From an uncultured Thermococci archaeon (lineage in GTDB: Archaea; Methanobacteriota_B; Thermococci; Methanofastidiosales; B48-G16), in NCBI GenBank assembly GCA_964595645.1, contig CAZQQT010000010.1, positions 1 through 64,000 on the forward strand: a stretch of DNA of 64,000 nt. The letters run 5' to 3'. Numbering within the stretch: position 1 is the first letter of the stretch; every line of letters starts with the position of its first letter. Positions 5,218 to 50,675 of this stretch are shown here, piece after piece. The notes under the pieces were generated by a model. It did no database searches and was not told where the DNA came from. It saw only the letters and a list, made by a program, of their open reading frames with translations. A program made the position numbers and the translations under genes.

Positions 5218-5799
5218 ATGACAGGGAATGACTTTGTCGATACACTACTCGGAACGTTTACCCATCCATTGAGAGGCGCGATACTCTATCAGCTCCTCAA
5301 GGGAAAAACCACAGCGAGCCAGATCGGAGAAAATCTCGGAGAAAAACCGGATAAGATATACTACCATTTGAAAATACTCAAAGAACATGGATTTATAGGG
5401 GAACCTGAGGTCGTCGTGAGAAAAAACTACGTAGAAAAATATTACGAGCTTACTCCACGGTTTAGAGAGAATTTGCTCTCATCTGCACAAGAACTCGCCG
5501 AAAGAGAGAAAAAAATGGATCCTGAAGAGTTTAGAAAGCTCATGCTCTCTTTCCTTTCCATGGCTATCTCTCTACTCCAAGGCTACAAGAAAAAACTTGA
5601 GAATGCCGATAGATGCGTGATAGAATCCATCCGGGAAGAGAATAATTTTGAAATCAAGCCTGTATTCTTTGAAGACACGCCGTACCGAGAGTGGTTAAAG
5701 GATACACGAGAAATATCACACGGCTCACTGATGGACATGTTTACTAAAGGGGCGGAGGGAAACATTGGAATGGTTGTTGCGTTGCCTGCACTTGAGTAA
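5218..5799 (+). CDS. ArsR-like winged-helix transcriptional regulator
   Basis: HPLRGAIL...TASQIGE...IYYHLKILKEHGFI...EKYYEL; divergent from the AKR gene. Confidence 0.85.
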   Translation: MTGNDFVDTLLGTFTHPLRGAILYQLLKGKTTASQIGENLGEKPDKIYYHLKILKEHGFIGEPEVVVRKNYVEKYYELTPRFRENLLSSAQELAEREKKMDPEEFRKLMLSFLSMAISLLQGYKKKLENADRCVIESIREENNFEIKPVFFEDTPYREWLKDTREISHGSLMDMFTKGAEGNIGMVVALPALE

Positions 5800-37430: not shown

Positions 37431-38087
37431 ATGGAACCTCCTCTTGGACCCATCGATGTCCTGATGAATCTTGTCGTGACAAAGGAAATCGATCCCTGGA
37501 ATATCGATATTGTGGATCTCACAGAGAAGTACCTCCGACGAATCGAAGAAGCAAAAAGTATCGATATGAGGGTTTCGGGAAAGACGGTGCTGGTGGCCAC
37601 TATTCTCATACGGATGCAGTCTGAAACGATGCTCGAAAAAAAGGAAAAAGAAAAAGACTCGGAAATCGAAGAGGATATTGATGTACCCCCTATACTTCCT
37701 CCATTAAGAAGGGAATCAAAGGAAATAACACTTCCTGCGCTTCTTGAAGCACTTTTTGAGACATTAGAAGATTATGAGAGGAAAAAAAAGCGAGCATCAA
37801 CACGATCGGAAACATCAAAAAAATCTAAGAAAGAAATTAAACAGATAATTAGAGTGGACGTATCTAAAAAAGACCTCGAAAAACATATCCAAAAGCTCTA
37901 TAGGCTTATAAAAGAATCTATCCATGGAAAAGAGTATATTCAGTTTGAACGGCTGGTTTTTGATAAGACGCCGCTGGGGAGAGCACGAACTTTTTTATAC
38001 TTATTGTTTTTACAGCAACAGGAGAAGATAGAACTCATTCAGCATGAGTTTTTTGGACCGATATACATAAAACTTATAGGTGGATAG
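37431..38087 (+). CDS. scpA: Segregation and condensation protein A (kleisin)
   Basis: IDPWNIDIVDLTEKYL and FLYLLFL...IELIQ.EFFGPI. Confidence 0.92.
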   Translation: MEPPLGPIDVLMNLVVTKEIDPWNIDIVDLTEKYLRRIEEAKSIDMRVSGKTVLVATILIRMQSETMLEKKEKEKDSEIEEDIDVPPILPPLRRESKEITLPALLEALFETLEDYERKKKRASTRSETSKKSKKEIKQIIRVDVSKKDLEKHIQKLYRLIKESIHGKEYIQFERLVFDKTPLGRARTFLYLLFLQQQEKIELIQHEFFGPIYIKLIGG

Positions 38088-38597
38088 ATGAAAAAAAAGG
38101 TGGAGGCAGTACTTTTTCTCTATGGCGATCCACTCTCTGTGAAAAAAATCGCGTTAATACTTGACACAAGCAGATCAAAGACCGAAAGATGTCTCAATAT
38201 TCTTTCAAACGAGTATTCTGAGAGAGATACAGCTATTGAGATAATAAATACTGTAGAAGACGAGTATGTCATGCAACTAAAACCGGCTTACTCCCATCTC
38301 ATAAAACATCTTCCCAGTAAGACGTCAAAGGCATTACTGAAGACACTCTCACTCATCGCATTGAAACAACCGATAAAACAGGCCGATGTTGCAAAGATAC
38401 GGGGGAATCACGCATACAGACATATAAAAAAGCTTGAAGAGGAAGGATTAATAGAAAAAAAGCCTGCGGGAAGAACGTATGTACTGACAACAACAAAGGA
38501 ATTTGCGGAATATTACGGACTGAAGGACGATTCTGCCAGAGAAATTAAGAAATTCATAAAAGAAAAAATAGAATCTTCCGATGATATGGTCTTTTAG
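38088..38597 (+). CDS. scpB: Segregation and condensation protein B
   Basis: VEAVLF, LKTLSLIALKQPI, IRG, TTKEFAEYYG. Confidence 0.92.
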   Translation: MKKKVEAVLFLYGDPLSVKKIALILDTSRSKTERCLNILSNEYSERDTAIEIINTVEDEYVMQLKPAYSHLIKHLPSKTSKALLKTLSLIALKQPIKQADVAKIRGNHAYRHIKKLEEEGLIEKKPAGRTYVLTTTKEFAEYYGLKDDSAREIKKFIKEKIESSDDMVF

Positions 38598-38702
38598 TAA
38601 TATAAACAATCTGTTTTATGAATAGTCCACGATTACCAATAAAAGCGTATGAAAGCGCTGCTGGGGACAAAGATATTTATACGGCCCGGATGAAAACGTA
38701 CC

Positions 38703-39431
38703 ATGGAAACATTTATCACTGAGAAAGAAACTCCAGAATTAGAAAATTCGGTGCTGATAGAGGGACTACCGGGGGTAGGACTTGTTGGAAAAGTAGCTGT
38801 AGATTATATGATTTCGAAGCTTGAATCGAAAAAATTCGCCGAGCTTTATTCCCCATATCTTCCTCATCAAGCCATGATAAAAGAGAATTCAGAGGCAGAG
38901 CTTATAAAAAATGAACTTTACTATTCCAAAGGGAAGAGAGATATTATATTTCTTGCGGGAGATGCTCAGGCAGTGGATACCTTCGGACATTACGAGATAA
39001 CTTCTAAGATTTTAGAGTATGTAGAAAAATACGATACTCGAGACGTATTCACACTTGGCGGGTTTGCCACAAAAAAGAAGAAAGAGAGAGTCTTTGGAGC
39101 AGTAACAGATGAGAAGATGAAGAAGGAGTATGAGGGCCTCGATATCACTTTCATGAACAAAGGGAGCATCGTCGGTGCCGCTGGACTTCTCCTCGGCATC
39201 GGTAAACTGAAAGGTCTTCACGGAACATGTCTTCTTGGTGAGTGTTCAGGACGGCTCGTGGATCCCAAGGCTGCCAAGGCTGTGCTGGAGATTGTCACAA
39301 AAATTCTCGACATTGAGATACGCTTTGAAGAGCTCGATCAGCGCATCCAAAAAACGGAAGAGTTCATCGAGAATATAAAGTTCCTCGAAGGGAGAGAGAA
39401 AGAGGACATAGAAGAAGGATATATAGGATGA
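38703..39431 (+). CDS. Proteasome assembly chaperone (PAC2) family protein
   Basis: LIEGLPGVGLVGK, TLGG, IVGAAGLL, DPKAA, C-terminal YIG. Confidence 0.92.
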   Translation: METFITEKETPELENSVLIEGLPGVGLVGKVAVDYMISKLESKKFAELYSPYLPHQAMIKENSEAELIKNELYYSKGKRDIIFLAGDAQAVDTFGHYEITSKILEYVEKYDTRDVFTLGGFATKKKKERVFGAVTDEKMKKEYEGLDITFMNKGSIVGAAGLLLGIGKLKGLHGTCLLGECSGRLVDPKAAKAVLEIVTKILDIEIRFEELDQRIQKTEEFIENIKFLEGREKEDIEEGYIG

Positions 39432-39438
39432 TCCAGCT

Positions 39439-40587
39439 ATGGTGGCGATACAGTACGGAACAGAAGAGGTAGATATAGGGCTTGACAATGCCGACATCAT
39501 ACTCCCTCAAAAAGCCGATCCTAATAACCATGCGATCGAAAAATGCGTTCGGGCACTGGAAGCATTTGCAGATGAGACAGTAACTTACATTGTAAATGAT
39601 GACAACAGACCTACAAGAACGGAAAAAATCTTGGAACGAGTAGAGATACGGCCAAAAGACAGGATCATCATAGCCACAGGCTCCCATTCTAGACCAAGCG
39701 ACAGGTGGATAGAAAAGAGGATCGGGAAACGGGAGAACATCATTATCCACGATGCTGAAGACGCACAGTTCACCTATTTTGGTACCACATCCTTTGACAA
39801 CGAGATCTATCTAAACAGCGATATAGAAAATACGAAAAAATTGGTGGTGATCACTTCTGTGGAACCACATTATTTTGCAGGGTTTACCGGAGGGAGAAAG
39901 AGCTTTCTTCCAGGAATCGCAAGATACGAGACAATAGAGAGGAACCACCACCATGCTCTGAATGAGAATGCTCGAACGCTCAATCTTAAAGGGAACCCTG
40001 TCCATGAGGAAATGATGGAGGTCTGTCATTTTGTGCAGGAAAAGAAGGACATCTTCTGTGTCAACATGATACAGGATGCCGAAGGAAACCTTGCAGATAT
40101 CAAGTACGGCGATATTGAAGACTCATTTTACGATGCGTGTGAAGTTTCCAGAAACCTCCACTCCACGACTATCAAAAAACAGTACGATGCGGTGGTGACT
40201 GTTGCCGCCCCTCCACTGGATATGAGCCTATACCAGTCACAGAAGGCGATGGAACACGCGAAACCTGCAGTAAAGGACGGAGGGACGTTAGTGCTCATTT
40301 CTGCATGTAGAGAGGGTATTGGACCTTCAAACTTTTACGATCTTCTTAAGAGTGGACCACCGGATGAGGTCATGGGGAAAATAAGGACGAATTATAAACT
40401 CGGATGGCATAAAACAACGAAGATGCTGGAAGCGCTTCAACACTACGATGTGTATGCTGTAACGGATCTCCCGAATAAGCTACTTGACGTTGTGAATATC
40501 ACGCCATGGTGTTTTTCAGATCTGGATAAAATAAGAGGGAACATATTAGTCATGCCCAATGGAGGGATTACTGTTCCTTCACTCTAA
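39439..40587 (+). CDS. larA: Nickel-pincer-dependent lactate racemase family protein
   Basis: D.NRP, ATGSH, EPHYFAGFTGGRKS, NH, GNPVHEEM, YQSQK. Confidence 0.85.
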   Translation: MVAIQYGTEEVDIGLDNADIILPQKADPNNHAIEKCVRALEAFADETVTYIVNDDNRPTRTEKILERVEIRPKDRIIIATGSHSRPSDRWIEKRIGKRENIIIHDAEDAQFTYFGTTSFDNEIYLNSDIENTKKLVVITSVEPHYFAGFTGGRKSFLPGIARYETIERNHHHALNENARTLNLKGNPVHEEMMEVCHFVQEKKDIFCVNMIQDAEGNLADIKYGDIEDSFYDACEVSRNLHSTTIKKQYDAVVTVAAPPLDMSLYQSQKAMEHAKPAVKDGGTLVLISACREGIGPSNFYDLLKSGPPDEVMGKIRTNYKLGWHKTTKMLEALQHYDVYAVTDLPNKLLDVVNITPWCFSDLDKIRGNILVMPNGGITVPSL

Positions 40588-40654
40588 TACGATGTGTCTG
40601 CCGAAAGAAATATTTATTAAATAGAAACAAAAAATAATAATGGGACGAGGAAAA

Positions 40655-40999
40655 ATGAAAACTTTTATTGCAACAGTAGGGAGAGGAAAAGGAACATGGG
40701 GTTATGTAGGCCGTCTAATGCAGGAAGAGTGGGATAAGATAATATTGATAGGCAATGAGTGGACCAAAGAGAGATTTTCTCACGAAAAGGATGCACAATG
40801 GATAGAAATCAACTCACAGGATTCTATCGGATCGATGGTAGAAACCATAGAAAAAAATTTGGACGATGTGGAGAATGTCCATCTCAATTTTGTTTCTGGA
40901 AGCGGAAACGAGCATATGGCTCTTTTGATAGCTTTAACGCATAAAGAGATAGATTATTCTTTCTGCTACCTTACAAAAGAGGGAGTGAAGATGGAGTAA
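40655..40999 (+). CDS. Hypothetical protein, stand-alone CARF-like Rossmann domain
   Basis: FIATVG, DKIILIG and VHLNFVSGSGNEHMALL patterns; GAGG RBS before ATG 40655. Confidence 0.6.
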   Translation: MKTFIATVGRGKGTWGYVGRLMQEEWDKIILIGNEWTKERFSHEKDAQWIEINSQDSIGSMVETIEKNLDDVENVHLNFVSGSGNEHMALLIALTHKEIDYSFCYLTKEGVKME

Positions 41000-41003
41000 C
41001 GTC

Positions 41004-41705
41004 TCATTTTTCTTCTTCATTTTGTTTTTCTATACCATCCATATCCACATTACACACGTAATACTCACCAAAAAAGAATCCTGGTTCTCTCTTTACTTTT
41101 ATATTGTCGTAGTTTTTATGGTACAGAAGGAGATTGTACTTTTTTGCAGATTCATTACGTTCTTTGAGTTTTTTTCCCATTAAATTGATGAGTTCCTGGA
41201 CGAACTCTCCTACCCTTTCCTGATTTTTCTTGTACATATCATAGTATTTCTTATATACTTGTATAGTCTTATCTCGTACGTACCACCTTATAAAGACAAC
41301 TATCCACGCGATGATAATAATTACGTACAGGATTATCTTCATCTCCTCCTGTGTGAGCCAGAATCGGAAGGATATAACCATTATTAACCCAACAAAGAAT
41401 ATAATGAGAAATGCTTGTCTTATGACGAACTGCGTGAAAAATAATATTTTTGCATAAAGTTCCATTTTTGGCTCTTTTTCTATTGCAATGCCCTTTATAT
41501 ACTCAAGGTCATCGTAGATTCTGCTTAACGAAGGTATATCAAAATTTCTGTGGACATTCCTCGCTTTTTCCCTCAACATCCCTCTTTTGACTCTTTTCCC
41601 AGCCCGAAAGTTGTCCAGTACACTTATGAGCCATGCGAAGTCTTCAAACTCCTTTTTCTTTCTCAGTATTACTCTTTTGATCTTCGCGAGCGCATGTCTG
41701 AACAT
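41004..41705 (-). CDS. Hypothetical 2-TM membrane protein
   Basis: Two central hydrophobic helices with basic soluble flanks; divergent from the APC permease. Confidence 0.8.
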   Translation of the reverse strand: MFRHALAKIKRVILRKKKEFEDFAWLISVLDNFRAGKRVKRGMLREKARNVHRNFDIPSLSRIYDDLEYIKGIAIEKEPKMELYAKILFFTQFVIRQAFLIIFFVGLIMVISFRFWLTQEEMKIILYVIIIIAWIVVFIRWYVRDKTIQVYKKYYDMYKKNQERVGEFVQELINLMGKKLKERNESAKKYNLLLYHKNYDNIKVKREPGFFFGEYYVCNVDMDGIEKQNEEEK

Positions 41706-41771
41706 GGAGTAATTATAGTTCAGGTCTTTTTAAGCTTTTTGTTGAATGTCGATATCAATCATATATAAAAC

Positions 41772-41786
41772 CGAAAGTTTTATAAA
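41772..41786 (+). promoter_or_regulatory. BRE/TATA promoter of the APC permease gene
   Basis: CGAAAGT-TTTATAAA; predicted start ~41806-41809. Confidence 0.7.
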
Positions 41787-41808
41787 GTAAGAATCTGGAT
41801 TATTAGGG

Positions 41809-41839
41809 TGAAGTCTGATGACTAAAGAGGAGGGCTTCA
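41809..41839 (+). promoter_or_regulatory. Kink-turn hairpin in the 5' leader
   Basis: UGAAGUCU-GAU-GA-CU-AAAG-AG-GA-GGGCUUCA: 8-bp C-stem, 3-nt bulge, tandem G.A/A.G pairs, 2-bp NC stem. Confidence 0.6.
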
Positions 41840-41882
41840 AAAGGAGAAAAAAAGAGTTAATTTAAAAAGGAGGCGAAAAAAT

Positions 41883-43478
41883 ATGGCAGAAGAAGGACCT
41901 GTTGTCTTTACACGAAGGGCATCAGGACTTGTTCGAGAAGTCGGTGCGTTTACAGCGATAAGTATTGGTTTGACCCACACCATTGGTGGCGGAATTAACA
42001 AACTGATGGTATTGATGCGGTACGAGAATCCCGGTGCAAGTGAGTTCGGTGCTTTCGGTATAGCAGGTATTATTGTGATGTTTACTGCTATATCGTACAC
42101 GATGCTGGCTGTGTCGATGCCGAGGACCGGTGGTGACTACATCTATATTTCACGAGCCATTCATCCGGTACTTGGTTTCCTGACGAGCTGGGCATTCTAC
42201 TTCACGGAGATTTTGAGCTTAGGTGTGATCGCCTACTACGACACAGATTACTGGGCATTAGGATTCAGGATATACGGTGTGGCAGCAGACAACGAGATGT
42301 ATTTCAATTGGGCAGATACGTTAACGAACGTCGAATCGGCGCGATTAGGCTTAGCAGTTGCATTTGTACTAGTTGCAGCTGTGGTTACCTATCTCGGTAC
42401 ACGAGTGTACTCATGGATTATTAACATTGGACTGGTTCTGGGAATTGTTGGTAGTATCGTGATGGGAGTATACTTCCTCACCAACCTCGGTGGAGATACA
42501 GCAAGTCTCTGGAATCAGACCTACGGTGCTGGAACCTACGAAGCAATTAAACAAAAGGCGATAGAGTTAGGTTCAGAAACGCAATCCATGAATATAGGTG
42601 CTACGATACAGGCGAGTATCGCCGCTGTCTGGGCATATATCGGTTTCACCGCTTCCGCCTACATGGGTGGAGAGGTAAAGAATCCGAGCAGAAGCCTGGT
42701 ATGGGCGATTACCATCGGTGCAGCAATTATTATACTGTACTACCTGTTCTTGGCCCTGATGGTGTCTAACACCTTCGGTAACTTCATGGCACACTACGCG
42801 TACATGTACTTCGAGGCGAAGGATCAGCTACTGCAGATCCTGCCGAACGCACCTGCTGCGATCCTGCCGACCTACGCCTGCGCTTTAGCACCCGGCCAGA
42901 CTGCGCTCCAGTTAATAATGGCTGTTTCAGCTGCTATCTGGTTACTGAACGACATTCCGGCGTTCTTCCTGGTATGTTCACGACTGGTATTCTCCTGGTC
43001 GTTCGACAGATTCTTCCCAGAGAAACTCGCCGATGTCAACGACAGGTTCCACTCTCCACACTGGGCCATTACACTCACCACATTAGGTGGATTAGCAGGA
43101 GTATTCCTGTGTTCTGCCGGTGAGTATCAGGCCGCCATGGAGACGACGTTAGGATTCCTGTTTGCAGTAACATTAGGCTGTCTTGCAGCTGCGATAACGC
43201 CGTACGTCCGAAAGGACCTCTATGAGCGTTCCATTAAGCTGGAGATAGGTGGAGCCCCACTAATGACAATATTCGGTATCTTAGGCTTTGCCTGCAACTT
43301 CTTCCTGCTCTTTGTCAGCGGTGCTGACATCTGGGGAGGAGGAGAAAACCCATGGCAGCTGTTCTATGTTGTCGCGTGGGAGTTCCTTGGCCTAGTGATA
43401 TTCATCGGGTACTACGCGTACAACATTAGACGAGGCGTGGACGTCGACACGATTTACGCAGAGATTCCACCGGCTTAA
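41883..43478 (+). CDS. APC-superfamily amino acid/polyamine permease
   Basis: FTRRASGLVRE, MPRTGGDYIYISR, GEVKNP, SRLVFSWSFDR, C-terminal EIPP; 12-14 TM helices. Confidence 0.95.
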   Translation: MAEEGPVVFTRRASGLVREVGAFTAISIGLTHTIGGGINKLMVLMRYENPGASEFGAFGIAGIIVMFTAISYTMLAVSMPRTGGDYIYISRAIHPVLGFLTSWAFYFTEILSLGVIAYYDTDYWALGFRIYGVAADNEMYFNWADTLTNVESARLGLAVAFVLVAAVVTYLGTRVYSWIINIGLVLGIVGSIVMGVYFLTNLGGDTASLWNQTYGAGTYEAIKQKAIELGSETQSMNIGATIQASIAAVWAYIGFTASAYMGGEVKNPSRSLVWAITIGAAIIILYYLFLALMVSNTFGNFMAHYAYMYFEAKDQLLQILPNAPAAILPTYACALAPGQTALQLIMAVSAAIWLLNDIPAFFLVCSRLVFSWSFDRFFPEKLADVNDRFHSPHWAITLTTLGGLAGVFLCSAGEYQAAMETTLGFLFAVTLGCLAAAITPYVRKDLYERSIKLEIGGAPLMTIFGILGFACNFFLLFVSGADIWGGGENPWQLFYVVAWEFLGLVIFIGYYAYNIRRGVDVDTIYAEIPPA

Positions 43479-43589
43479 AAAAGAAATATTTTAAACATTT
43501 CTTTTTTCTTTTTTTTGATTTTTCAGTTTTGAAAAAGTCTTTATAGAAAGGTTTTTATACGTTCTAAAAAATAAGATAATGGTGATACG

Positions 43590-44540
43590 ATGGCAAGAAT
43601 GTTTTTTTCAGCCGATGCACACGGAAGTACCATAATATGGAGGAAATGGGTAAATGTTCCCAAGTTTCATAATGCCGATATGCTACTCCTCTGTGGAGAT
43701 CTAACCGGAAAGGCGATTGTTCCCTTGATAGAGCAGGAGAACGGAAATTATACCTCCCACTATTTCGGGAGAAAATGGACGCTGAGTTCAGAGGACGAAA
43801 TAGAGAATATGGAGATGAGATTAGCAGATTCAGGAGTGTATGCATATAAAACAACAAAAGATGAAGTAGAGAAGATGAAAAGGGATCAGAAATACGTGGA
43901 AGATCTAATCGAGAAGCTAATAAAGGAGAGAATACGTGAGTGGTTCGATTTATTAGTTGAAAAGGTCGACACGAGCAAGACACAGGTCATGGCAATGCCC
44001 GGAAACGATGACGATAAGTATATTGATCCCGTTATTAAGTCATACGAGGACGACGGTGTGATCTGGTGTCTAGACAAGGTAATTGATATTGGTGGCTTTG
44101 AGTGTATCAGTTACGAGTATGTGAATCCCACGCCGTGGGACACACCACGAGAGAAGCCAGAGAAGGAACTGAGAAAGGACATCGACGATCTCGTGGGCAG
44201 ACTGGACAATGTGGAGAAATCTGTATTTAACTTCCACGCTCCACCCTATGGAACCCGGCTGGATATGGCACCAAAACTTGACGACCAGCTGAGGGTGCAA
44301 GCTCAGGCAGGAGAGGTTGAGATGGAGCATGTAGGAAGCAAAGCTGTCCGTGACGCGATAAAAGAGTACCAGCCAATGATAGGATTACACGGCCATATAC
44401 ATGAGAGTTACGCCGCCGAGGAAATAGGAAATACACCAGTGGTCAACCCGGGATCTGAGTACGGTGAAGGTATTCTGCGAGGCTACATTCTTGAGTTTGA
44501 CGATGAAGGCGTTGATAGGTACTGGAAGGTAGAAGGATAA
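43590..44540 (+). CDS. Calcineurin-like metallophosphoesterase (Icc-related)
   Basis: DAHGS, GDLTGK, PGNDD, HAPP, HGHIHE. Confidence 0.92.
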   Translation: MARMFFSADAHGSTIIWRKWVNVPKFHNADMLLLCGDLTGKAIVPLIEQENGNYTSHYFGRKWTLSSEDEIENMEMRLADSGVYAYKTTKDEVEKMKRDQKYVEDLIEKLIKERIREWFDLLVEKVDTSKTQVMAMPGNDDDKYIDPVIKSYEDDGVIWCLDKVIDIGGFECISYEYVNPTPWDTPREKPEKELRKDIDDLVGRLDNVEKSVFNFHAPPYGTRLDMAPKLDDQLRVQAQAGEVEMEHVGSKAVRDAIKEYQPMIGLHGHIHESYAAEEIGNTPVVNPGSEYGEGILRGYILEFDDEGVDRYWKVEG

Positions 44541-44581
44541 TTACTCCTTCTATTTTTTTAAATTTTTAGAGGGGTTTTTAA

Positions 44582-45370
44582 ATGAGTATGAGCATTGAAG
44601 AGCTAAAAGAGCAGGAAAGACAATTTTTTGAGATTCGAGACAAGATTATGGAAGAAGCGGATAAACAAGGAGTAACTCTGCGATTGATTGGTGCTATCGC
44701 ATTTAGAACGCAGTGTCCAGATTATAAGTACCTAGAATATGACCTAGGGAGACAGCTAACGGATATCGATTTTGTTGGTTACGAAAAGGAGACAAGGAAG
44801 ATAGAGAAACTCTTTGATACGCTTGGATGGAAATCAGAGCGGGCTTTACATACAGTAATGAAGCGAATGGGTGCGAACAGGATGATATTCTACGGGCCTG
44901 GCGAGGTACACTCTGATGTATTCCTCGATGGGCTGCGGTTCTGCCATATCCTGAAGTTGAAAGATAGGCTTGAGATAGATGATCTCACGATCTCCCTCTC
45001 CGATCTGCTTCTCGAAAAACTCCAGATTGTGGAGATAAATGAAAAAGATATCGTCGACTGCATCATGCTTTTCAGAGAGCACAAAGTGGGAACAGACGAC
45101 GAAACGACAATAAATAAGAATTATATCGCCAATCTCTTTGCAAACGACTGGGGATGGTGGAGAACGTCCACAGAAAATCTTGAGAATATAAAGCATTTTA
45201 CAGAGAGATACGATAAACTCACAGAAGAGGACAAACAGATCGTGATTAACAGGATAGAGGAGCTAGAGAAGGCAATAGATGAGCAATCCAAACCCTTCAG
45301 TTGGAAGATGAGGAATAAGATTGGCGATAAGAAGAAATGGTATAGGGATGTCGAAGAAGTAGAAAGATAG
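44582..45370 (+). CDS. Uncharacterised Pol-beta-superfamily nucleotidyltransferase
   Basis: LRLIGAIAF (hG[GSA]), R..TDIDF (DxD), third acidic residue in SDVF, C-terminal LLLEK...KDIVD. Confidence 0.75.
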   Translation: MSMSIEELKEQERQFFEIRDKIMEEADKQGVTLRLIGAIAFRTQCPDYKYLEYDLGRQLTDIDFVGYEKETRKIEKLFDTLGWKSERALHTVMKRMGANRMIFYGPGEVHSDVFLDGLRFCHILKLKDRLEIDDLTISLSDLLLEKLQIVEINEKDIVDCIMLFREHKVGTDDETTINKNYIANLFANDWGWWRTSTENLENIKHFTERYDKLTEEDKQIVINRIEELEKAIDEQSKPFSWKMRNKIGDKKKWYRDVEEVER

Positions 45371-45385
45371 ATCTCTGCGGTTTCC

Positions 45386-46021
45386 ATGAAGACGATAGAA
45401 GCAATAAAAAAACGACGATCGATCCGGAAGTTCAAAAAGGGAGATAATCTTCCTCCCGAACCAATGAAGGTAATCCTTAATGCTGGAAGATGGGCACCAT
45501 CGGCGAGTAATAGACAGCCGTGGAAGTTTATCGTACTCTCGAAAAAAGATGATAAAGAACTCGTTGCACGACTATATGTGGATGCGTATAAAAAAGAGGC
45601 CAATGATATTGTACTGAGGGACGACGCCGACAAGTACTTTGAGAATCCGTATGAAGTGAAAAAGAGAATTCTCAACATGACCGATACTCTGTGGAATCAG
45701 ATGGTGGATCCAACCTACATCCTCATCGTGTGCGCAAACCCGGAAAAATCTAAATCGTATATCTTTGAGTCAGGATGCGCAATACAGAACATGATGCTTG
45801 CTGCGTGGGAGTTAGGAATTGGGTCATGTTGTGTGGAGATTGCAACAAGCATCCTCGCAGAGTACTTCGATAAACAGGCACTCAAAAATTACTTTGCCAT
45901 TCCGGAGCATATGGATGTTGTGGCACTTGTGCCAATGGGAACACCCGAACAGATACCACCCCCACCACCTCGTGAAATTTTGAAGGATTTCCACTTCAGA
46001 CATTTCTGGATGCCAGGCTGA
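45386..46021 (+). CDS. Nitroreductase family protein
   Basis: RRSIRKF, APSASNRQPWKF, QNMMLAAWELGIGSC. Confidence 0.92.
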   Translation: MKTIEAIKKRRSIRKFKKGDNLPPEPMKVILNAGRWAPSASNRQPWKFIVLSKKDDKELVARLYVDAYKKEANDIVLRDDADKYFENPYEVKKRILNMTDTLWNQMVDPTYILIVCANPEKSKSYIFESGCAIQNMMLAAWELGIGSCCVEIATSILAEYFDKQALKNYFAIPEHMDVVALVPMGTPEQIPPPPPREILKDFHFRHFWMPG

Positions 46022-46144
46022 TCGTGTTCGTTCACAGCAAATGAATTTTTACTTTTTGTATTTTTATTTTCTCTTACTAAAAAAAGAAAAACCTTAAAAG
46101 CATTTCTGTTGTAGGATTTGTACTATCATTATCGGTGATTTATT

Positions 46145-47608
46145 ATGGAAAGAAGCATTCTCGATAGACTCGAACCACGGATAGTATGGACAATTTTTGA
46201 AGATATCACGAAAGTTCCTCGCCCTTCCAAAAAAGAAGGAAAGATCTGTCAGTGGATGGAAAATCGGGCCGAAGAAAATGGAATTTCCTTCAACGAGGAT
46301 GATGTAGGGAATATTCTCCTCCGCAAAGAGGCGACACCAGGATATGAGGACTATCCAACGCTTGTGCTTCAAGCACATATGGATATGGTCTGTGAAAAAA
46401 CAGTCGACACAGAGATCGATTTTGAGTGCGATCCACTGAAGCTTGCTGTTGAGAACGGATACGTGACAGCACAGGGGACATCATTGGGTGCTGATAACGG
46501 AATCGGCATGGCATATGGATTAGCTGCATTAACAGCAGAGCATATTGATCATGGACCACTCGAGGTCGTATTGACCGTTGATGAGGAGACAGGACTTACA
46601 GGAGCCTTTAAAATGGAGAAAGAATTTTTTTCCGGTAAGTACTTGTTGAATCTTGATAGTGAATCACTGGGAGCTATTACTATTGGAAGTGCAGGAGGAG
46701 GAGATACACACTATAGCCTCCCTGTGACCCGTGAGAAAAAGAATGGATGGCAGGCGATTAAAATATCGATACAGGGACTCAAAGGAGGTCATTCGGGCGT
46801 TGAAATCCATCTTCCTAGATTGAATGCCATCAAGACTTTGTTGGAGGGTGTACTTTCTTTGAAAAGGAGAGGAAATGTTCGTTTACACAGTATAGAGGGA
46901 GGGTCCGTCCACAACGCAATTCCACGAGAGGCAACATTCACCGTGTTGGTCCCCGAAAACGAGAAGAGTATGGCAATGAGGACACTCAGACAGTGGAAAA
47001 TCAGTACAGTGCAGGAGGCACACCATCACGAGCCCAATATACAGATAGATATCGCTGAGTCCAACGAAACAAATATGTTGCTAGAATCTCATTCGGACGA
47101 TCTCTGTATGTTTTTGAATGAAATTCCCTACGGCGTTCTCGCATTCAGCGATGAGATAGAGGGATTGGTACAGACATCCAATAACCTTGCTATCGTCGAG
47201 ACAGGCGAAGACACGATTGAAGTTCACGTCAGCAGTAGAAGCTCCGTGGATAAGGAGCTCGAGAAACTTCGGGCCCAACTGAGACAACTCGGTGAAACGT
47301 ACGGCGCAACAGTGAAACAGGAAGAAGCGTATCCTGGATGGCATCCTGATCCCGACGCCCCCTTTGTACAAACAGTGAAGCAGATTTATGAAAATGTGAT
47401 GAAGAAGGAGGTGGCACTGAAGGCTGTTCATGGAGGATTGGAGTGCGGATTATTCTCACGGTTCGATCCTGCCTTGCAGATAGTGTCCATCGGTCCAGAG
47501 ATAAAAGATGCGCATACTCCAGAAGAACGGGTCTCTATTGAGAGTGTTGCCATACTATGGAAAGTCATTACGAGAATCATTGAGAATATGGGAATGTTAG
47601 AGCGTTAA
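46145..47608 (+). CDS. pepD: Aminoacyl-histidine dipeptidase (M20C)
   Basis: QAHMDMV, LGADNGIG, DEETG, NLDSE, GGHSG, HGGLECG, HTPEE. Confidence 0.95.
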   Translation: MERSILDRLEPRIVWTIFEDITKVPRPSKKEGKICQWMENRAEENGISFNEDDVGNILLRKEATPGYEDYPTLVLQAHMDMVCEKTVDTEIDFECDPLKLAVENGYVTAQGTSLGADNGIGMAYGLAALTAEHIDHGPLEVVLTVDEETGLTGAFKMEKEFFSGKYLLNLDSESLGAITIGSAGGGDTHYSLPVTREKKNGWQAIKISIQGLKGGHSGVEIHLPRLNAIKTLLEGVLSLKRRGNVRLHSIEGGSVHNAIPREATFTVLVPENEKSMAMRTLRQWKISTVQEAHHHEPNIQIDIAESNETNMLLESHSDDLCMFLNEIPYGVLAFSDEIEGLVQTSNNLAIVETGEDTIEVHVSSRSSVDKELEKLRAQLRQLGETYGATVKQEEAYPGWHPDPDAPFVQTVKQIYENVMKKEVALKAVHGGLECGLFSRFDPALQIVSIGPEIKDAHTPEERVSIESVAILWKVITRIIENMGMLER

Positions 47609-48645
47609 AGCAGATGTTTGTTTCCTACATGCACTCGATGTAAATACTTACTCGCTACACTGTAACACTCTTCAGTAAGTGTTCTTGTTGTTATTGGCAT
47701 ATCTCTCATTTTAAAGTTTGGATGGAACGCGAGAAGTGAATAGGGGATGTCCGGATCAAATGACGCGATATACTGCGCTATTTTTTCTACTTCCTCCTTA
47801 TCAATGTACCCAGGGATGAGGAGCGTGGTAGCGGTGAGCAGATTCTTCTTCTTAAACTCTTCGGCTACCATCTTAAAGTTCTCCAGCGTCCTCGTATTTG
47901 GGCGTCCGGTCAGCACTTTATGAAGATACGGATCATACGCTTTGAGATCAAATTTTATTACACCACCGGTACGGGAGGAGAACTCTGCCGCCCTCCTCAC
48001 AAGCTGGGGATTTCCCGTGCCGTTCCACTCCCAACAAATCCGCAAAGAGTTCGATTCGAGTATTTTTTCAGTTGTGTTGAGTAAAAATGGAAGCTGCGGC
48101 TCAGGTGTTCCTCCAAAGTAGCAAATACAGGATGCTCTCTCTGCCTTCTGAACTAACTCGTCCGCGCTTGTTGTATTGGCGCTATCTATCATCTTATGCT
48201 CATAATTTTGACAGAATACGCAGTTGAAAGAACAGGCAAAGGGAAACACCGCCAGATTGTACCCCTGTTCTTTACTCCCTGGACAGAACCACGAGGCACA
48301 GCAGTTTGTGGGCAGAGAGTCGTAATACGAGTGTAGTAGCCCCTGTTTTACCTGGAGTTTCCTCTCGTTGTTCTCTCTCAGTCCGCAGTATCCTCGTTTC
48401 CCCATTCCTATTTTGCACTCGTTGGCACACACGGTACACTGAACTCCTTCATCGTCTTTCGGCGGCAACGCTGGTAGGTTAAACTGTTCTCTTATTTTTT
48501 TGTGTACATTTGAAGCGATACTGAGAGACTTCTTAGGGTTTTTTCGAATACAGGAGAGACATATACCCAGCGCCGATGAGACCTCATTACTCTTCTTTCC
48601 GCAGAGCTGACAGGTTGCTTTTTCTGCAGTACTGAATCTCCACAT
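47605..48645 (-). CDS. Radical SAM protein (PFL-activase-like) with N-terminal Cys clusters
   Basis: CSFNCVFCQN, YFGGTPEP, DLKA; extra CxxC pairs at the N-terminus. Confidence 0.88.
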   Translation of the reverse strand: MWRFSTAEKATCQLCGKKSNEVSSALGICLSCIRKNPKKSLSIASNVHKKIREQFNLPALPPKDDEGVQCTVCANECKIGMGKRGYCGLRENNERKLQVKQGLLHSYYDSLPTNCCASWFCPGSKEQGYNLAVFPFACSFNCVFCQNYEHKMIDSANTTSADELVQKAERASCICYFGGTPEPQLPFLLNTTEKILESNSLRICWEWNGTGNPQLVRRAAEFSSRTGGVIKFDLKAYDPYLHKVLTGRPNTRTLENFKMVAEEFKKKNLLTATTLLIPGYIDKEEVEKIAQYIASFDPDIPYSLLAFHPNFKMRDMPITTRTLTEECYSVASKYLHRVHVGNKHLL

Positions 48646-48761
48646 CTATCCTATCTTTTTTCATTGAGATTGAAGTAGGTTTCCCTTTGAAAAGGGGTTG
48701 TATTAAGATATTTGGTACAGCGATATGCCTCAGTGAATGTTAAGAGGAAAAATTTTTTGCT

Positions 48762-50675
48762 TTATTTACCTAACTCCTCCTTCATCTGCTCAATGGCAGC
48801 TGAAATTTCATCGACGGAGGCACCGTCCTCAATAGTACTCAAATCACCGAGTTCCTTGCCTTCATAAACACTTTTGAGTACACGTCTCATTATCTTTCCA
48901 CTGCGTGTTTTCGGTAACATTTTGACTATTTCAACTGCCTTTGGTGTGGCTATAGGGCCGACTTTTTCTCTTACAACCTGAGATATTTCTTTTTTTAACT
49001 CTTTCGAGGATTCGTAGCCCTTTTTAAGGACGACAAATGCAATGACAACAGTTCCCTTTATCTTATCTTCTACACCGACACAGGAGGTCTCAGCTATGGC
49101 ATCATGGGAAGCAACAGCTTCTTCAATTTCCCGGGTACCCAGTCGGTGTCCTGCGATTTTTATTACCTCATCTGCTCGTCCTAAGACCCAAAAGTATCCA
49201 TCTTCATCCTCGATTGCATAATCTCCCGTATAGTAGAGCTTTTTGTTCGGGAACCTTTCCCAGTACGTTCTCTTGTACCGTTCATCGTTCCCATAGATCG
49301 TCATGAGGTTTCCAGGAGGTAAGGGAGGCCTGGCAACGAGCGTCCCCTTTTCGCCTGGTGGTACTTCTTCTCCTTGCTCGTTCACGACAAGAAGGTCGTA
49401 GCCTACCACAGGTTTTGTAGGGGATCCTGGTTTTATTGGCAGAGACTCAATCCCTGGCATGTTGGAGAGCATGGGCCACCCTGATTCCGTTTGCCAGTAG
49501 TGGTCGATCACAGGCGCATTGAGTGTTTGGGTAGCCCACCCATAGGTCGATTTGTCCAGTGGTTCACCGGCCACGAAGAGATAACGGAGTGAAGAAAGAT
49601 CTCGCTCCCTTATCCATTTCTCTGGATACTTCTTTAGGATTCGTAGGGCAGTGGGGGCGCTAAACATGCACGTCACACCGTATTTCTCTACTATCTTCCA
49701 CCAAATCCCGGGATCGGGATGCACAGGCGTGCCTTCGTACATTATAGTAGGAATACCCAACAATAATGGGCCGTAGACAATGTAAGAATGACCAACAACC
49801 CATCCGATGTCACTCGTTGAGAAATAAACGTCCCGACCAGGTTGACAATCATAGATCTGTTTCATCGAAGCATGGAGGGCAACCATGTAGCTGCCGGTAT
49901 CCCTCAATACACCCTTGGGCTTTCCTGTAGTTCCGGAGGTGTAGAGGATATATGAGGGATCGGTACTTTTCAGTTGCTCCGGTTCTACATACTCCATACT
50001 TTTCGTTTCGAGAAGTTCCTTCCAATCAAGATCATTTTCCCTTCTTGGGGCGTCGGGATCCAACTCTCTGTTCAGAACAACTGTGTGTTCTACTTGCTCG
50101 GTAGCCATCTCTAGGGCATCATCAACAATGGGTTTCAACTTGATCACTTTTCCCTTCCGGCTTCCAGCATCGCATGTGAGAATCAGTTTTGGGTTGGCGT
50201 CGTCAATTCGTTCCGCAAGAGCTTCACGGCTGAATCCGGCAAACACGACGGAATGAATTGCACCAATACGGACACAGGCAAGCATTGCAATCGCTGCTTC
50301 TGGAACCATTGGCATATAGATAATAATGCGGTCACCTTTCTGTACACCGAGATTCTTCAGCACACCGGCAAATTTATTTACTTCTTTATACAGCTGATAG
50401 TACGTGTAAGTACGTGATTGCCCTGTTTCTGGGCTTTCCCATATGAGGGCGGTCGTTTCTCGTTTGTCTCCGAGTGCGTGTCTATCTACTGCATTGTAAC
50501 AGAGGTTGGTTTTTCCTCCGACAAACCAGCGGAAAAAAGGGTAGTTACTATCGTCCAGCACGGTGTCCCATTCATCGTACCAGTGAAGGTCTTCTGCTTC
50601 CTGTTCCCAAAACTCCTGAGGGCAGCTGAGAGAGGATTCATAGGTTTCTTCATATGAATTATATCTCATAGTCAT
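48762..50675 (-). CDS. AMP-forming acyl-CoA synthetase (acetate/propionate-CoA ligase, PrpE-like)
   Basis: YTSGTTGKPKGV, DHYWQTE, GRADEVIKIAGHRLG, PKTRSGKIMRR. Confidence 0.95.
   Translation of the reverse strand: MTMRYNSYEETYESSLSCPQEFWEQEAEDLHWYDEWDTVLDDSNYPFFRWFVGGKTNLCYNAVDRHALGDKRETTALIWESPETGQSRTYTYYQLYKEVNKFAGVLKNLGVQKGDRIIIYMPMVPEAAIAMLACVRIGAIHSVVFAGFSREALAERIDDANPKLILTCDAGSRKGKVIKLKPIVDDALEMATEQVEHTVVLNRELDPDAPRRENDLDWKELLETKSMEYVEPEQLKSTDPSYILYTSGTTGKPKGVLRDTGSYMVALHASMKQIYDCQPGRDVYFSTSDIGWVVGHSYIVYGPLLLGIPTIMYEGTPVHPDPGIWWKIVEKYGVTCMFSAPTALRILKKYPEKWIRERDLSSLRYLFVAGEPLDKSTYGWATQTLNAPVIDHYWQTESGWPMLSNMPGIESLPIKPGSPTKPVVGYDLLVVNEQGEEVPPGEKGTLVARPPLPPGNLMTIYGNDERYKRTYWERFPNKKLYYTGDYAIEDEDGYFWVLGRADEVIKIAGHRLGTREIEEAVASHDAIAETSCVGVEDKIKGTVVIAFVVLKKGYESSKELKKEISQVVREKVGPIATPKAVEIVKMLPKTRSGKIMRRVLKSVYEGKELGDLSTIEDGASVDEISAAIEQMKEELGK

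Follow-up and report, generated by a model that had tools for sequence, protein, structure and literature searches.

A permease, a metallophosphoesterase, and a stand-alone nucleotidyltransferase form a recurrent, uncharacterized gene unit in archaea and bacteria

Layout of the locus and co-inheritance of its core genes

The DNA analyzed here (the window) is a stretch of 64,000 nucleotides from contig CAZQQT010000010.1 of an uncultured Thermococci archaeon (GenBank assembly GCA_964595645.1). Its host genome (G000) is a 1.97-Mb archaeal assembly of a Thermococci-related lineage and is 99.96% complete. Between positions 41004 and 46021, the list of open reading frames (ORFs) contains a minus-strand gene for a protein with two transmembrane (TM) segments, followed by four co-oriented plus-strand genes that encode an APC permease, a calcineurin-like metallophosphoesterase, a nucleotidyltransferase (NTase) of the Pol-beta type, and a nitroreductase (Table 1). 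All five genes named in the original prediction, a reading of the bare DNA letters, are present in the arrangement that it described, with the 2-TM gene divergent from the others. The gaps between the four co-oriented genes measure 111, 41, and 15 nucleotides, and the 2-TM and permease genes diverge across an intergenic region of 177 nucleotides. The flanking genes are unrelated housekeeping genes (ScpA/B, a PAC2 chaperone, a LarA-like protein, a PepD dipeptidase, a radical-SAM enzyme, and acetyl-CoA synthetase). Our analysis shows that the permease, the phosphoesterase, and the NTase constitute a real, recurrent, and uncharacterized unit, referred to below as the module, that is found across unrelated archaea and bacteria.

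Table 1. Positions of the module genes and neighboring features in the window
Feature	Positions	Strand	Basis
119-aa protein, possibly CARF-like	40640..40999	+	weak language-model lead
2-TM membrane protein, 233 aa, predicted cytosolic N- and C-terminal domains	41004..41705	-	hydropathy
BRE/TATA-like block ACCGAAAGTTTTATAAAG, likely permease promoter	41770..41787	+	alignment of five relatives
K-turn (K-loop)-like leader element	41810..41838	+	covariation
APC-superfamily permease, 531 aa, module-specific subfamily	41883..43478	+	Pfam AA_permease_2
Calcineurin-like metallophosphoesterase, 316 aa, GNDD motif III	43590..44540	+	Pfam Metallophos, Metallophos_2, Metallophos_3
Stand-alone Pol-beta-fold NTase, 262 aa	44582..45370	+	AlphaFold2 fold and invariant motifs
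Nitroreductase-family flavoprotein, 211 aa	45386..46021	+	Pfam Nitroreductase
PepD-type Xaa-His dipeptidase, 487 aa	46145..47608	+	TIGR01893

A scan of one genome per prokaryotic species returned at least 587 loci with a relative of the NTase, and the best 80 of these were examined. Their archaeal sources are Thermococci-related archaea, Thermoprotei, Hadesarchaea, Bathyarchaeia, and Nitrososphaeria; the bacterial ones are Caldisericota, WOR-3, Eisenbacteria, Fermentibacteria, Bacillota, Actinomycetota (Thermoleophilia), and mostly Chloroflexota. Among the 42 loci with at least 5 kb of sequence on both sides, drawn from about a dozen phyla, 37 contain the permease, phosphoesterase, and NTase genes all within 5 kb. 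The original prediction had stated that such clusters recur in unrelated archaea and bacteria and had made its reading depend on the genes co-occurring elsewhere; these 37 loci bear out both. The genes occur in the order permease-phosphoesterase-NTase, in the reverse order, or with the NTase divergent from a phosphoesterase-permease pair, and the phosphoesterase usually lies next to the permease.

The three genes are also present or absent together among relatives. When 41 relatives were compared, the NTase was found in 10 genomes, and the module-type phosphoesterase (E ≤ 1e-128) and permease (E ≤ 1e-88) were found in the same 9; the tenth genome has its NTase at a contig edge. The remaining 31 relatives lack all three proteins alike. 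In two genomes (G010 and G013), the permease lies on a different contig from the enzyme pair, indicating that the linkage of the trio does not depend on adjacency alone. Hundreds of uncultured archaea and bacteria have inherited the three genes as a set.

The two enzymes and the permease

The protein encoded from position 44582 reached no Pfam or NCBIfam model. In an alignment of 33 diverse homologues, G37 (followed by A38), D61, and D112 are invariant and D63 is nearly so, and the G-A, DID (D61-I-D63), and third-aspartate motifs that the original prediction had picked out are therefore conserved features of the family. About 30 further residues are invariant, including R34, R57, R100, H110, D116, C121, H122, K146, D156, D159, W190, and W253. 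The protein possesses the hG[GSA] and [DE]x[DE] motifs and the third carboxylate on the core β-sheet of the Pol-beta NTase superfamily. Its AlphaFold2 model (predicted local distance difference test (pLDDT), 94.2; predicted template modeling score, 0.92) was compared with solved structures (VIA search), and the best matches were ANT(2'')-Ia (Z 12.8), MenT1 (Z 12.1), and a Paracoccidioides NTase-like protein (Z 11.3), with LnuA (Z 10.2), TglT (Z 9.7), TM1012 (Z 9.5), and MenT4 (Z 8.5) further down. The top nine matches are NTases throughout (Z 8.6-12.8) and share the α/β NTase core. The predicted model thus displays the Pol-beta NTase fold on which the original prediction had staked its proposal. 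Foldseek with the same model gave only matches with E values of 2e-3 or weaker, and a sequence search against solved structures returned nothing useful (best E 0.56). The NTase has neither a signal peptide nor TM segments.

The family is large. Among 5.8 billion proteins, we found 867 relatives of similar length, and the ones listed are all unnamed and devoid of Pfam domains. A profile search of 1.84 billion cluster representatives (50% identity clusters) returned 2702 members (E ≤ 1e-3), of which 888 reached E ≤ 1e-30; almost all members are stand-alone proteins of 250-280 residues. The window NTase gave no match to PF14907 (NTP_transf_5) at E ≤ 0.01, and its relatives score 17.8-23.4 bits against a gathering threshold of 31.2 bits. 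Judged by these profile scores, the family is close to PF14907 but sub-threshold.

Several paralogs of the NTase occur outside the module. The host genome encodes a second one of 247 residues with 36% identity (C4:110835-111572; L020:8830-9573, plus strand), which adjoins a prolyl-tRNA synthetase gene and has no permease or phosphoesterase nearby. Comparable stand-alone paralogs in G010 and G013 lie between a 496-residue protein without a Pfam match and a short-chain dehydrogenase/reductase (SDR). Two rare architectures were also seen, a 799-residue protein (P0124) in which an NTase paralog is fused to an ANL-type AMP-binding (acyl-adenylate-forming) enzyme and a 396-residue protein (P0135) in which an N-terminal winged-helix (MarR-like) domain precedes the NTase.

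The phosphoesterase scores above the Pfam cut-offs for Metallophos, Metallophos_2, and Metallophos_3. In an alignment of 30 homologues, D9, H11, N139, D140, D141, H216, H269, and H271 are invariant, and G36 and D37 are nearly so. The five metal-binding motifs of the superfamily (D9xH11, G36-D37, G138-N139-D140-D141, H216, and G268-H269-x-H271) are accordingly conserved, as is the replacement of GNH[DE] by GNDD that the original prediction had pointed out. The AlphaFold2 model (pLDDT 94.8) contains a helical insert at approximately residues 60-125. Its closest structural matches are aq_1956 (Z 23.7), TT1561 (Z 22.6), and Mre11 (Z 19.1), followed by MPPED2 (Z 18.6), the glycerophosphodiesterase GpdQ (Z 17.2), the cyclic-nucleotide phosphodiesterase Rv0805 (Z 17.1), and SapH (Z 10.2). 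With Mre11/SbcD nucleases, MPPED2, GpdQ, and Rv0805 among its nearest folds, the protein looks like a phosphodiesterase. PPP protein phosphatases do not appear among its 50 best structural matches, an absence from that list rather than an exclusion, and the PPP Ser/Thr phosphatase signature (GDxHG, GDxVDRG, GNHE) is lacking, as motif II reads GDLTGK and motif III reads GNDD. In a sequence search against solved structures, matches covered the C-terminal motifs only. The absence of a signal peptide and of TM segments marks the phosphoesterase as cytosolic.

The structural matches of the two enzymes raise the question of an RNA substrate. A MenT-like NTase could extend tRNA 3' ends, with the phosphoesterase in charge of trimming or repair, and the uptake of amino acids would in this way be coupled to the charging of tRNA; alternatively, the two could be a toxin-antitoxin or defense pair that travels with the permease. 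MenT1, TglT, and MenT4 are indeed among the best NTase matches, and Mre11/SbcD nucleases rank high for the phosphoesterase. However, a PADLOC search with the NTase, the 2-TM protein, and the permease found no matching defense model, no antitoxin of the AbiEi/MenA type is adjacent to the NTase, and the strict tie to one permease subfamily, together with 11 copies beside metabolic genes in one genome (see below), is unlike the behavior of toxin-antitoxin pairs. We therefore rejected the defense or toxin-antitoxin reading, and an RNA-directed pair as a whole appears very improbable.

The permease matches AA_permease_2 over residues 23-483 (101.7 bits), which places it in the APC superfamily, and it is the sole APC-family match in the host genome (tblastn). 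Its nearest solved relatives are GkApcT (E 3e-25) and CAT1. All 56 full-length module permeases carry an N-terminal motif, [FY]-x-R-[KR]-[AS]-S-G-L-x-[RK], in which R, S, G, and L are invariant, and 53 of them end in a C-terminal tail, G-[IV]-[DN]-(8 residues)-[IVL]-P-[PV]-x. In the window permease, the N motif is FTRRASGLVR (residues 9-18, with serine at position 14), and the tail is GVDVDTIYAEIPPA (G518...IPP529-A). GkApcT aligns only to positions 17-513 of the module-permease profile. Other APC permeases from a 120-genome sample of the phylum align from position 16-17 to at most 521 (E 1e-11 to 1e-15) and, given these end points, lack both terminal motifs. In 12-TM APC transporters, as established for GkApcT and the CATs, both termini are cytosolic. 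Read from these alignments, the module permeases have two newly recognized, subfamily-specific cytosolic motifs.

The remainder of the permease is far less constant. The substrate-site regions in TM1 and TM6 are not conserved between clades, and across phyla the permeases share only 21-31% identity, whereas the NTases share 40-48%. The module permeases also have an insert of approximately 40 residues (profile positions and window residues ~197-234) that is absent from GkApcT; it falls between the aligned blocks 17-196 and 235-513 and is partly conserved, with the consensus N...G...Y......A...G.

Genomic contexts and the action of the enzyme pair

The module is found beside different metabolic genes in different genomes. 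In Anaerolineales, its neighbors include a DeoR regulator, DMGDH-like demethylases, a choline/ethanolamine-kinase-like protein, aminotransferases, and aldolases. A Bathyarchaeota genome of 1.9 Mb (G045, the source of L085) contains approximately 13 NTase and 13-15 phosphoesterase copies and at least 11 trios, which neighbor an MttB-family methyltransferase; MtrH with URO-D and a corrinoid protein; a proline racemase homologue; a luciferase-like oxidoreductase; and an SDR. The intact permease paralogs of this genome have the same N motif throughout, whereas the variable positions of their tails differ. Many permease genes at its loci L101-L114 are broken into two ORFs and are either pseudogenes or affected by frameshifts of the assembly. 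The module thus behaves like a portable unit for uptake, joined to a variety of nitrogen-compound pathways. The host genome of the window, which is nearly complete, has no MttB and no choline-kinase homologue, and a choline or methylamine reading was rejected for this genome on that basis.

These contexts, together with the fold of the NTase, could be explained by processing of the cargo in the manner of a group-translocation-like trap. The NTase would nucleotidylate a hydroxyl of the imported compound and the phosphoesterase would cleave the resulting phosphodiester, so that the cargo would be released again or left phosphorylated (for example, choline as phosphocholine), thereby pulling uptake and feeding phosphate-ester pathways. 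The nearest NTase folds, ANT(2'')-Ia and LnuA, are small-molecule O-nucleotidylyltransferases, several modules adjoin MttB or corrinoid demethylation genes, and the Anaerolineales islands carry the kinase-like, DMGDH-like, aminotransferase, and aldolase genes listed above. In 2025, phosphocholine, and not choline, was identified as the true substrate of an MttB-family demethylase pathway (PMC12155760), which fits this scheme. The presence of one enzyme pair per permease paralog is likewise what cargo-specific enzymes would predict. On the other hand, conservation is much higher in the enzymes than in the permease, in which the substrate-site regions vary; the cargoes suggested by some neighborhoods (betaines, proline derivatives, and amino acids) have no hydroxyl; the Anaerolineales islands already encode a kinase; and the host genome has neither of the two genes named above, MttB and a choline-kinase homologue. 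Processing of the cargo would also leave the invariant cytosolic termini of the permease unexplained. Enzymes acting on the cargo are expected to diverge with the substrate site, to need a cargo with a hydroxyl, and not to need conserved termini, and the reverse is seen. We consider this explanation unlikely, although it is the strongest of the rivals.

A further possibility is a diffusible nucleotide signal made by the NTase, degraded by the phosphoesterase, and read by ligand-binding proteins or by the permease tails, thereby gating uptake. CBS and CARF domains are nucleotide-ligand-binding domain types, and candidates for both were found. In 26 Anaerolineales-type loci (including L041:8826-9635), a protein with four CBS domains is encoded directly 3' of the NTase on the same strand; in this lineage, the module could have it as a partner that binds nucleotides. 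Beside the window module lies the gene for a 119-residue protein, which has no Pfam match even at E 10 and no NCBIfam match; its language-model neighbors carry CARF_Card1, Csa3_N, and HFX_2341_N domains at low scores (0.79-0.83). In addition, the metallophosphoesterase superfamily includes hydrolases of cyclic nucleoside monophosphates and diadenosine tetraphosphate, as illustrated by the matches to Rv0805 and SapH. Nevertheless, the protein is only weakly assigned to CARF, and the proposed readers are limited to particular lineages (the 119-residue gene adjoins the module in this one archaeal family only, at L013 and L015/L021), whereas the trio is universal. The NTase also lacks the larger cGAS/CD-NTase scaffold, its top matches are not messenger synthases, and Rel/SpoT reach only Z 8.4-8.5. 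A diffusible signal is accordingly a distinctly improbable explanation.

Building on what is established (the folds, catalytic residues that are intact, strict co-inheritance, and terminal motifs specific to the permease subfamily), we tentatively favor, at somewhat less than an even chance, control of the permease by its own enzyme pair over processing of the cargo. The permease would import a nutrient of the amino acid or amine type, and the two enzymes that accompany it in the cytosol would control it rather than metabolize what it carries. The NTase would add a nucleotidyl mark (a nucleoside monophosphate, NMP) on the cytosolic face, and the phosphodiesterase-type metallophosphoesterase would remove it. 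The best candidate site would be the invariant serine of the N motif (Ser-14 in the window permease), the C-terminal G[IV][DN]...IPP tail would act as a docking site by which each permease is matched to its own enzymes, and uptake would be switched off or on according to the state of the cell. That the enzymes act on the permease is an inference, and so are the modified residue, the nucleotide, and whether the mark switches uptake on or off.

Several observations point in this direction, among them the joint inheritance of the trio and the lack of signal peptides and TM segments in both enzymes. The conserved NTase and the variable TM1 and TM6 regions suggest that the enzymes see something constant while the cargo changes, and the invariant cytosolic motifs offer such a constant feature, with a serine flanked by basic residues. 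The combination of these motifs with a variable substrate site lends indirect support to reversible nucleotidylation, which was one of the readings put forward in the original prediction. The likeness of the phosphoesterase to phosphodiesterases and nucleases, and the absence of PPP phosphatases from its top 50 matches, fit the removal of a phosphodiester-linked NMP. Between the paralogs of G045, the variable tail positions differ and the N motif stays constant, and the tail is the proposed pairing element.

The counterpoints to control of the permease are serious. The nearest folds of the NTase act on small molecules (ANT(2'')-Ia and LnuA) or on tRNA (MenT1), not on proteins, and the Pol-beta enzymes that do nucleotidylylate proteins (GlnE, GlnD, DrrA, and MntA) mostly modify tyrosine, not serine. 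The invariant N motif could be a purely structural or docking element, and one writer and eraser pair per permease paralog is equally expected of cargo-specific enzymes. Moreover, our fusion searches with the NTase and the phosphoesterase revealed no recurrent fusion of either enzyme with the permease. A single ORF of 888 residues joins permease and phosphoesterase (L058), probably through a lost stop codon, as a close relative (L093) has two genes; the other phosphoesterase fusions are one with an SGL-lactonase and a transposase artifact. These cases neither support nor refute a physical coupling.

In its most specific form, control of the permease would amount to an unrecognized type of prokaryotic transport control, in which each permease has a private NTase as writer and a private phosphodiesterase as eraser and the transporter itself is reversibly nucleotidylated. 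We regard this as possible but doubtful. If true, the switch would be widespread in uncultured archaea (Bathyarchaeia and Thermococci-related lineages) and bacteria and multiplied up to 11-fold in one genome, and direct nucleotidylation of a transporter would join the known modes of transport regulation. The invariant serine provides a concrete, testable residue.

With hardly an exception, the NTase family, which comprises about 2,700 clusters, is linked to a single subfamily of permeases and a single subfamily of phosphoesterases. Its hosts (Bathyarchaeia, Anaerolineae, Thermoleophilia, and Thermococci-related archaea) are dominant organisms of anoxic sediments and soils. Once solved, the chemistry would give thousands of hypothetical proteins a function and reveal how these mostly uncultured heterotrophs import nutrients rich in nitrogen (methylated amines, betaines, and amino acids, for example).

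Leader element and lineage-specific neighbors

Two elements were recognized upstream of the permease gene. The BRE/TATA-like block is almost invariant among the five relatives aligned and is likely the permease promoter. Approximately 45 nucleotides 5' of the start codon lies a kink-turn (K-turn)-like element, with a 7-bp stem (GAAGUCU/GGGCUUC), a 3-nucleotide GAU bulge, tandem sheared G-A pairs (GA/GA), a C-G closing pair, and a short loop, which is the canonical make-up of a K-turn or K-loop. Seven copies from five genomes were compared (L021:5251-5284; L022:5217-5250 and 5255-5288; L013:1963-1996; L012:185-218 and 219-252, besides that of the window), and the element is tandemly duplicated in two relatives. 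Compensatory changes preserve the stem, the bulge and the G-A pairs are invariant, and the strict pattern has only two matches in the whole genome; the K-turn leader proposed in the original prediction is thus well supported as an RNA motif. Rfam contains no family that matches within 38000-49000, and minimum free energy folding of the leader gave a nonsignificant z of −0.69, as expected for a K-turn. The element is likely a binding site that controls translation, with L7Ae as the presumed ligand.

Of the additional partners that the original prediction had included, the nitroreductase and the 2-TM protein recur in some lineages but are not part of the core. The nitroreductase (Pfam Nitroreductase, 103.4 bits) falls under every NCBIfam equivalog cut-off, and its nearest solved structures are uncharacterized proteins. 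Its gene is co-oriented and 3' of the NTase here, an arrangement limited to the versions from Thermococci-related archaea and Caldisericota (L011-L015 and L021-L025). In two Caldisericota loci (L024 and L025), the entire permease-phosphoesterase-NTase-nitroreductase block is 43-52% identical to that of the window archaeon, which indicates transfer of the four genes between domains. The 2-TM protein has hydropathy segments near residues 85 and 119 and matches no family above cut-off. It is divergent from the permease in the window, and its homologues adjoin the module elsewhere in this archaeal family. One Bathyarchaeota module also has a homologue beside it, which is 21% identical along its entire length (E 3e-10); a sensitive hidden Markov model (HMM) search found five members in approximately 100 loci.

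The PepD protein scores 517.6 bits against TIGR01893 (cut-off 343.75), and its gene lies 3' of the nitroreductase in the closest relatives only (L012, L013, L015, and L021-L023), which places it outside the core as well. On the other side of the locus, the LarA-family (nickel-pincer cofactor-dependent racemase) homologue at 39439-40587 (plus strand) is under all NCBIfam equivalog cut-offs, and larB, larC, and larE were not seen among its immediate neighbors.

Relation to known systems

No characterized system combines a Pol-beta NTase, a calcineurin-like metallophosphoesterase, and an APC permease. Our literature searches found no description of the module or of the NTase family, in answer to the concern raised in the original prediction that the cluster might match a pathway already characterized. 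The logic proposed here is that of GlnD/GlnK (PII)/AmtB and GlnE/glutamine synthetase, in which an NTase of the Pol-beta superfamily is combined with a removing activity, and in the case of AmtB the outcome is a membrane transporter gated from the cytosolic side, like the proposed permease switch. GlnD and GlnE, however, are large multidomain proteins that carry their own removing activity and act on tyrosines of soluble proteins, whereas the window writer is a stand-alone protein of 262 residues whose NTase family is unrelated to theirs, a metallophosphoesterase encoded by its own gene is the candidate eraser, and the module includes no PII protein.

By fold, the NTase is nearest to ANT(2'')-Ia (153 residues aligned, root-mean-square deviation 3.1) and LnuA (140 residues), with which it shares a small two-lobed architecture of an NTase core and a helical C-terminal part. 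Identity to these enzymes is only 12-19%, there is no HMM-level relationship and no resistance context at this locus, and, unlike them, the window NTase always has a phosphoesterase and an APC permease as partners. The MenT/AbiEii (DUF1814) toxins have comparable fold scores, but the window NTase stands apart from them, with a phosphoesterase and a nitroreductase instead of an antitoxin as neighbors and a metabolic context.

The phosphoesterase is nearest to aq_1956 (2YVT) and TT1561 (1UF3) both by fold and by sequence (Metallophos_3, PF14582, 32.5 bits; 2yvt, E 0.008). These are structural-genomics proteins whose PDB titles carry no assigned function. They are shorter (257 and 228 residues) than the 316-residue phosphoesterase and may therefore lack its ~60-residue β-hairpin and helical insert. 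The permease shares the 12-TM APC fold of GkApcT and the CAT (SLC7) cationic amino-acid transporters, but the N-terminal RxASGL motif, the IPP tail, and the insert after position 196 are confined to the module subfamily.

Together, these comparisons show that the parts of the module are members of known superfamilies, nearest by logic to GlnD/GlnK/AmtB and GlnE/glutamine synthetase and by fold to ANT(2'')-Ia and LnuA. The terminal signature of the permease, the 11-fold expansion in differing contexts, the phyletic test, the four-gene block shared between domains, and the covariation of the K-turn are new.

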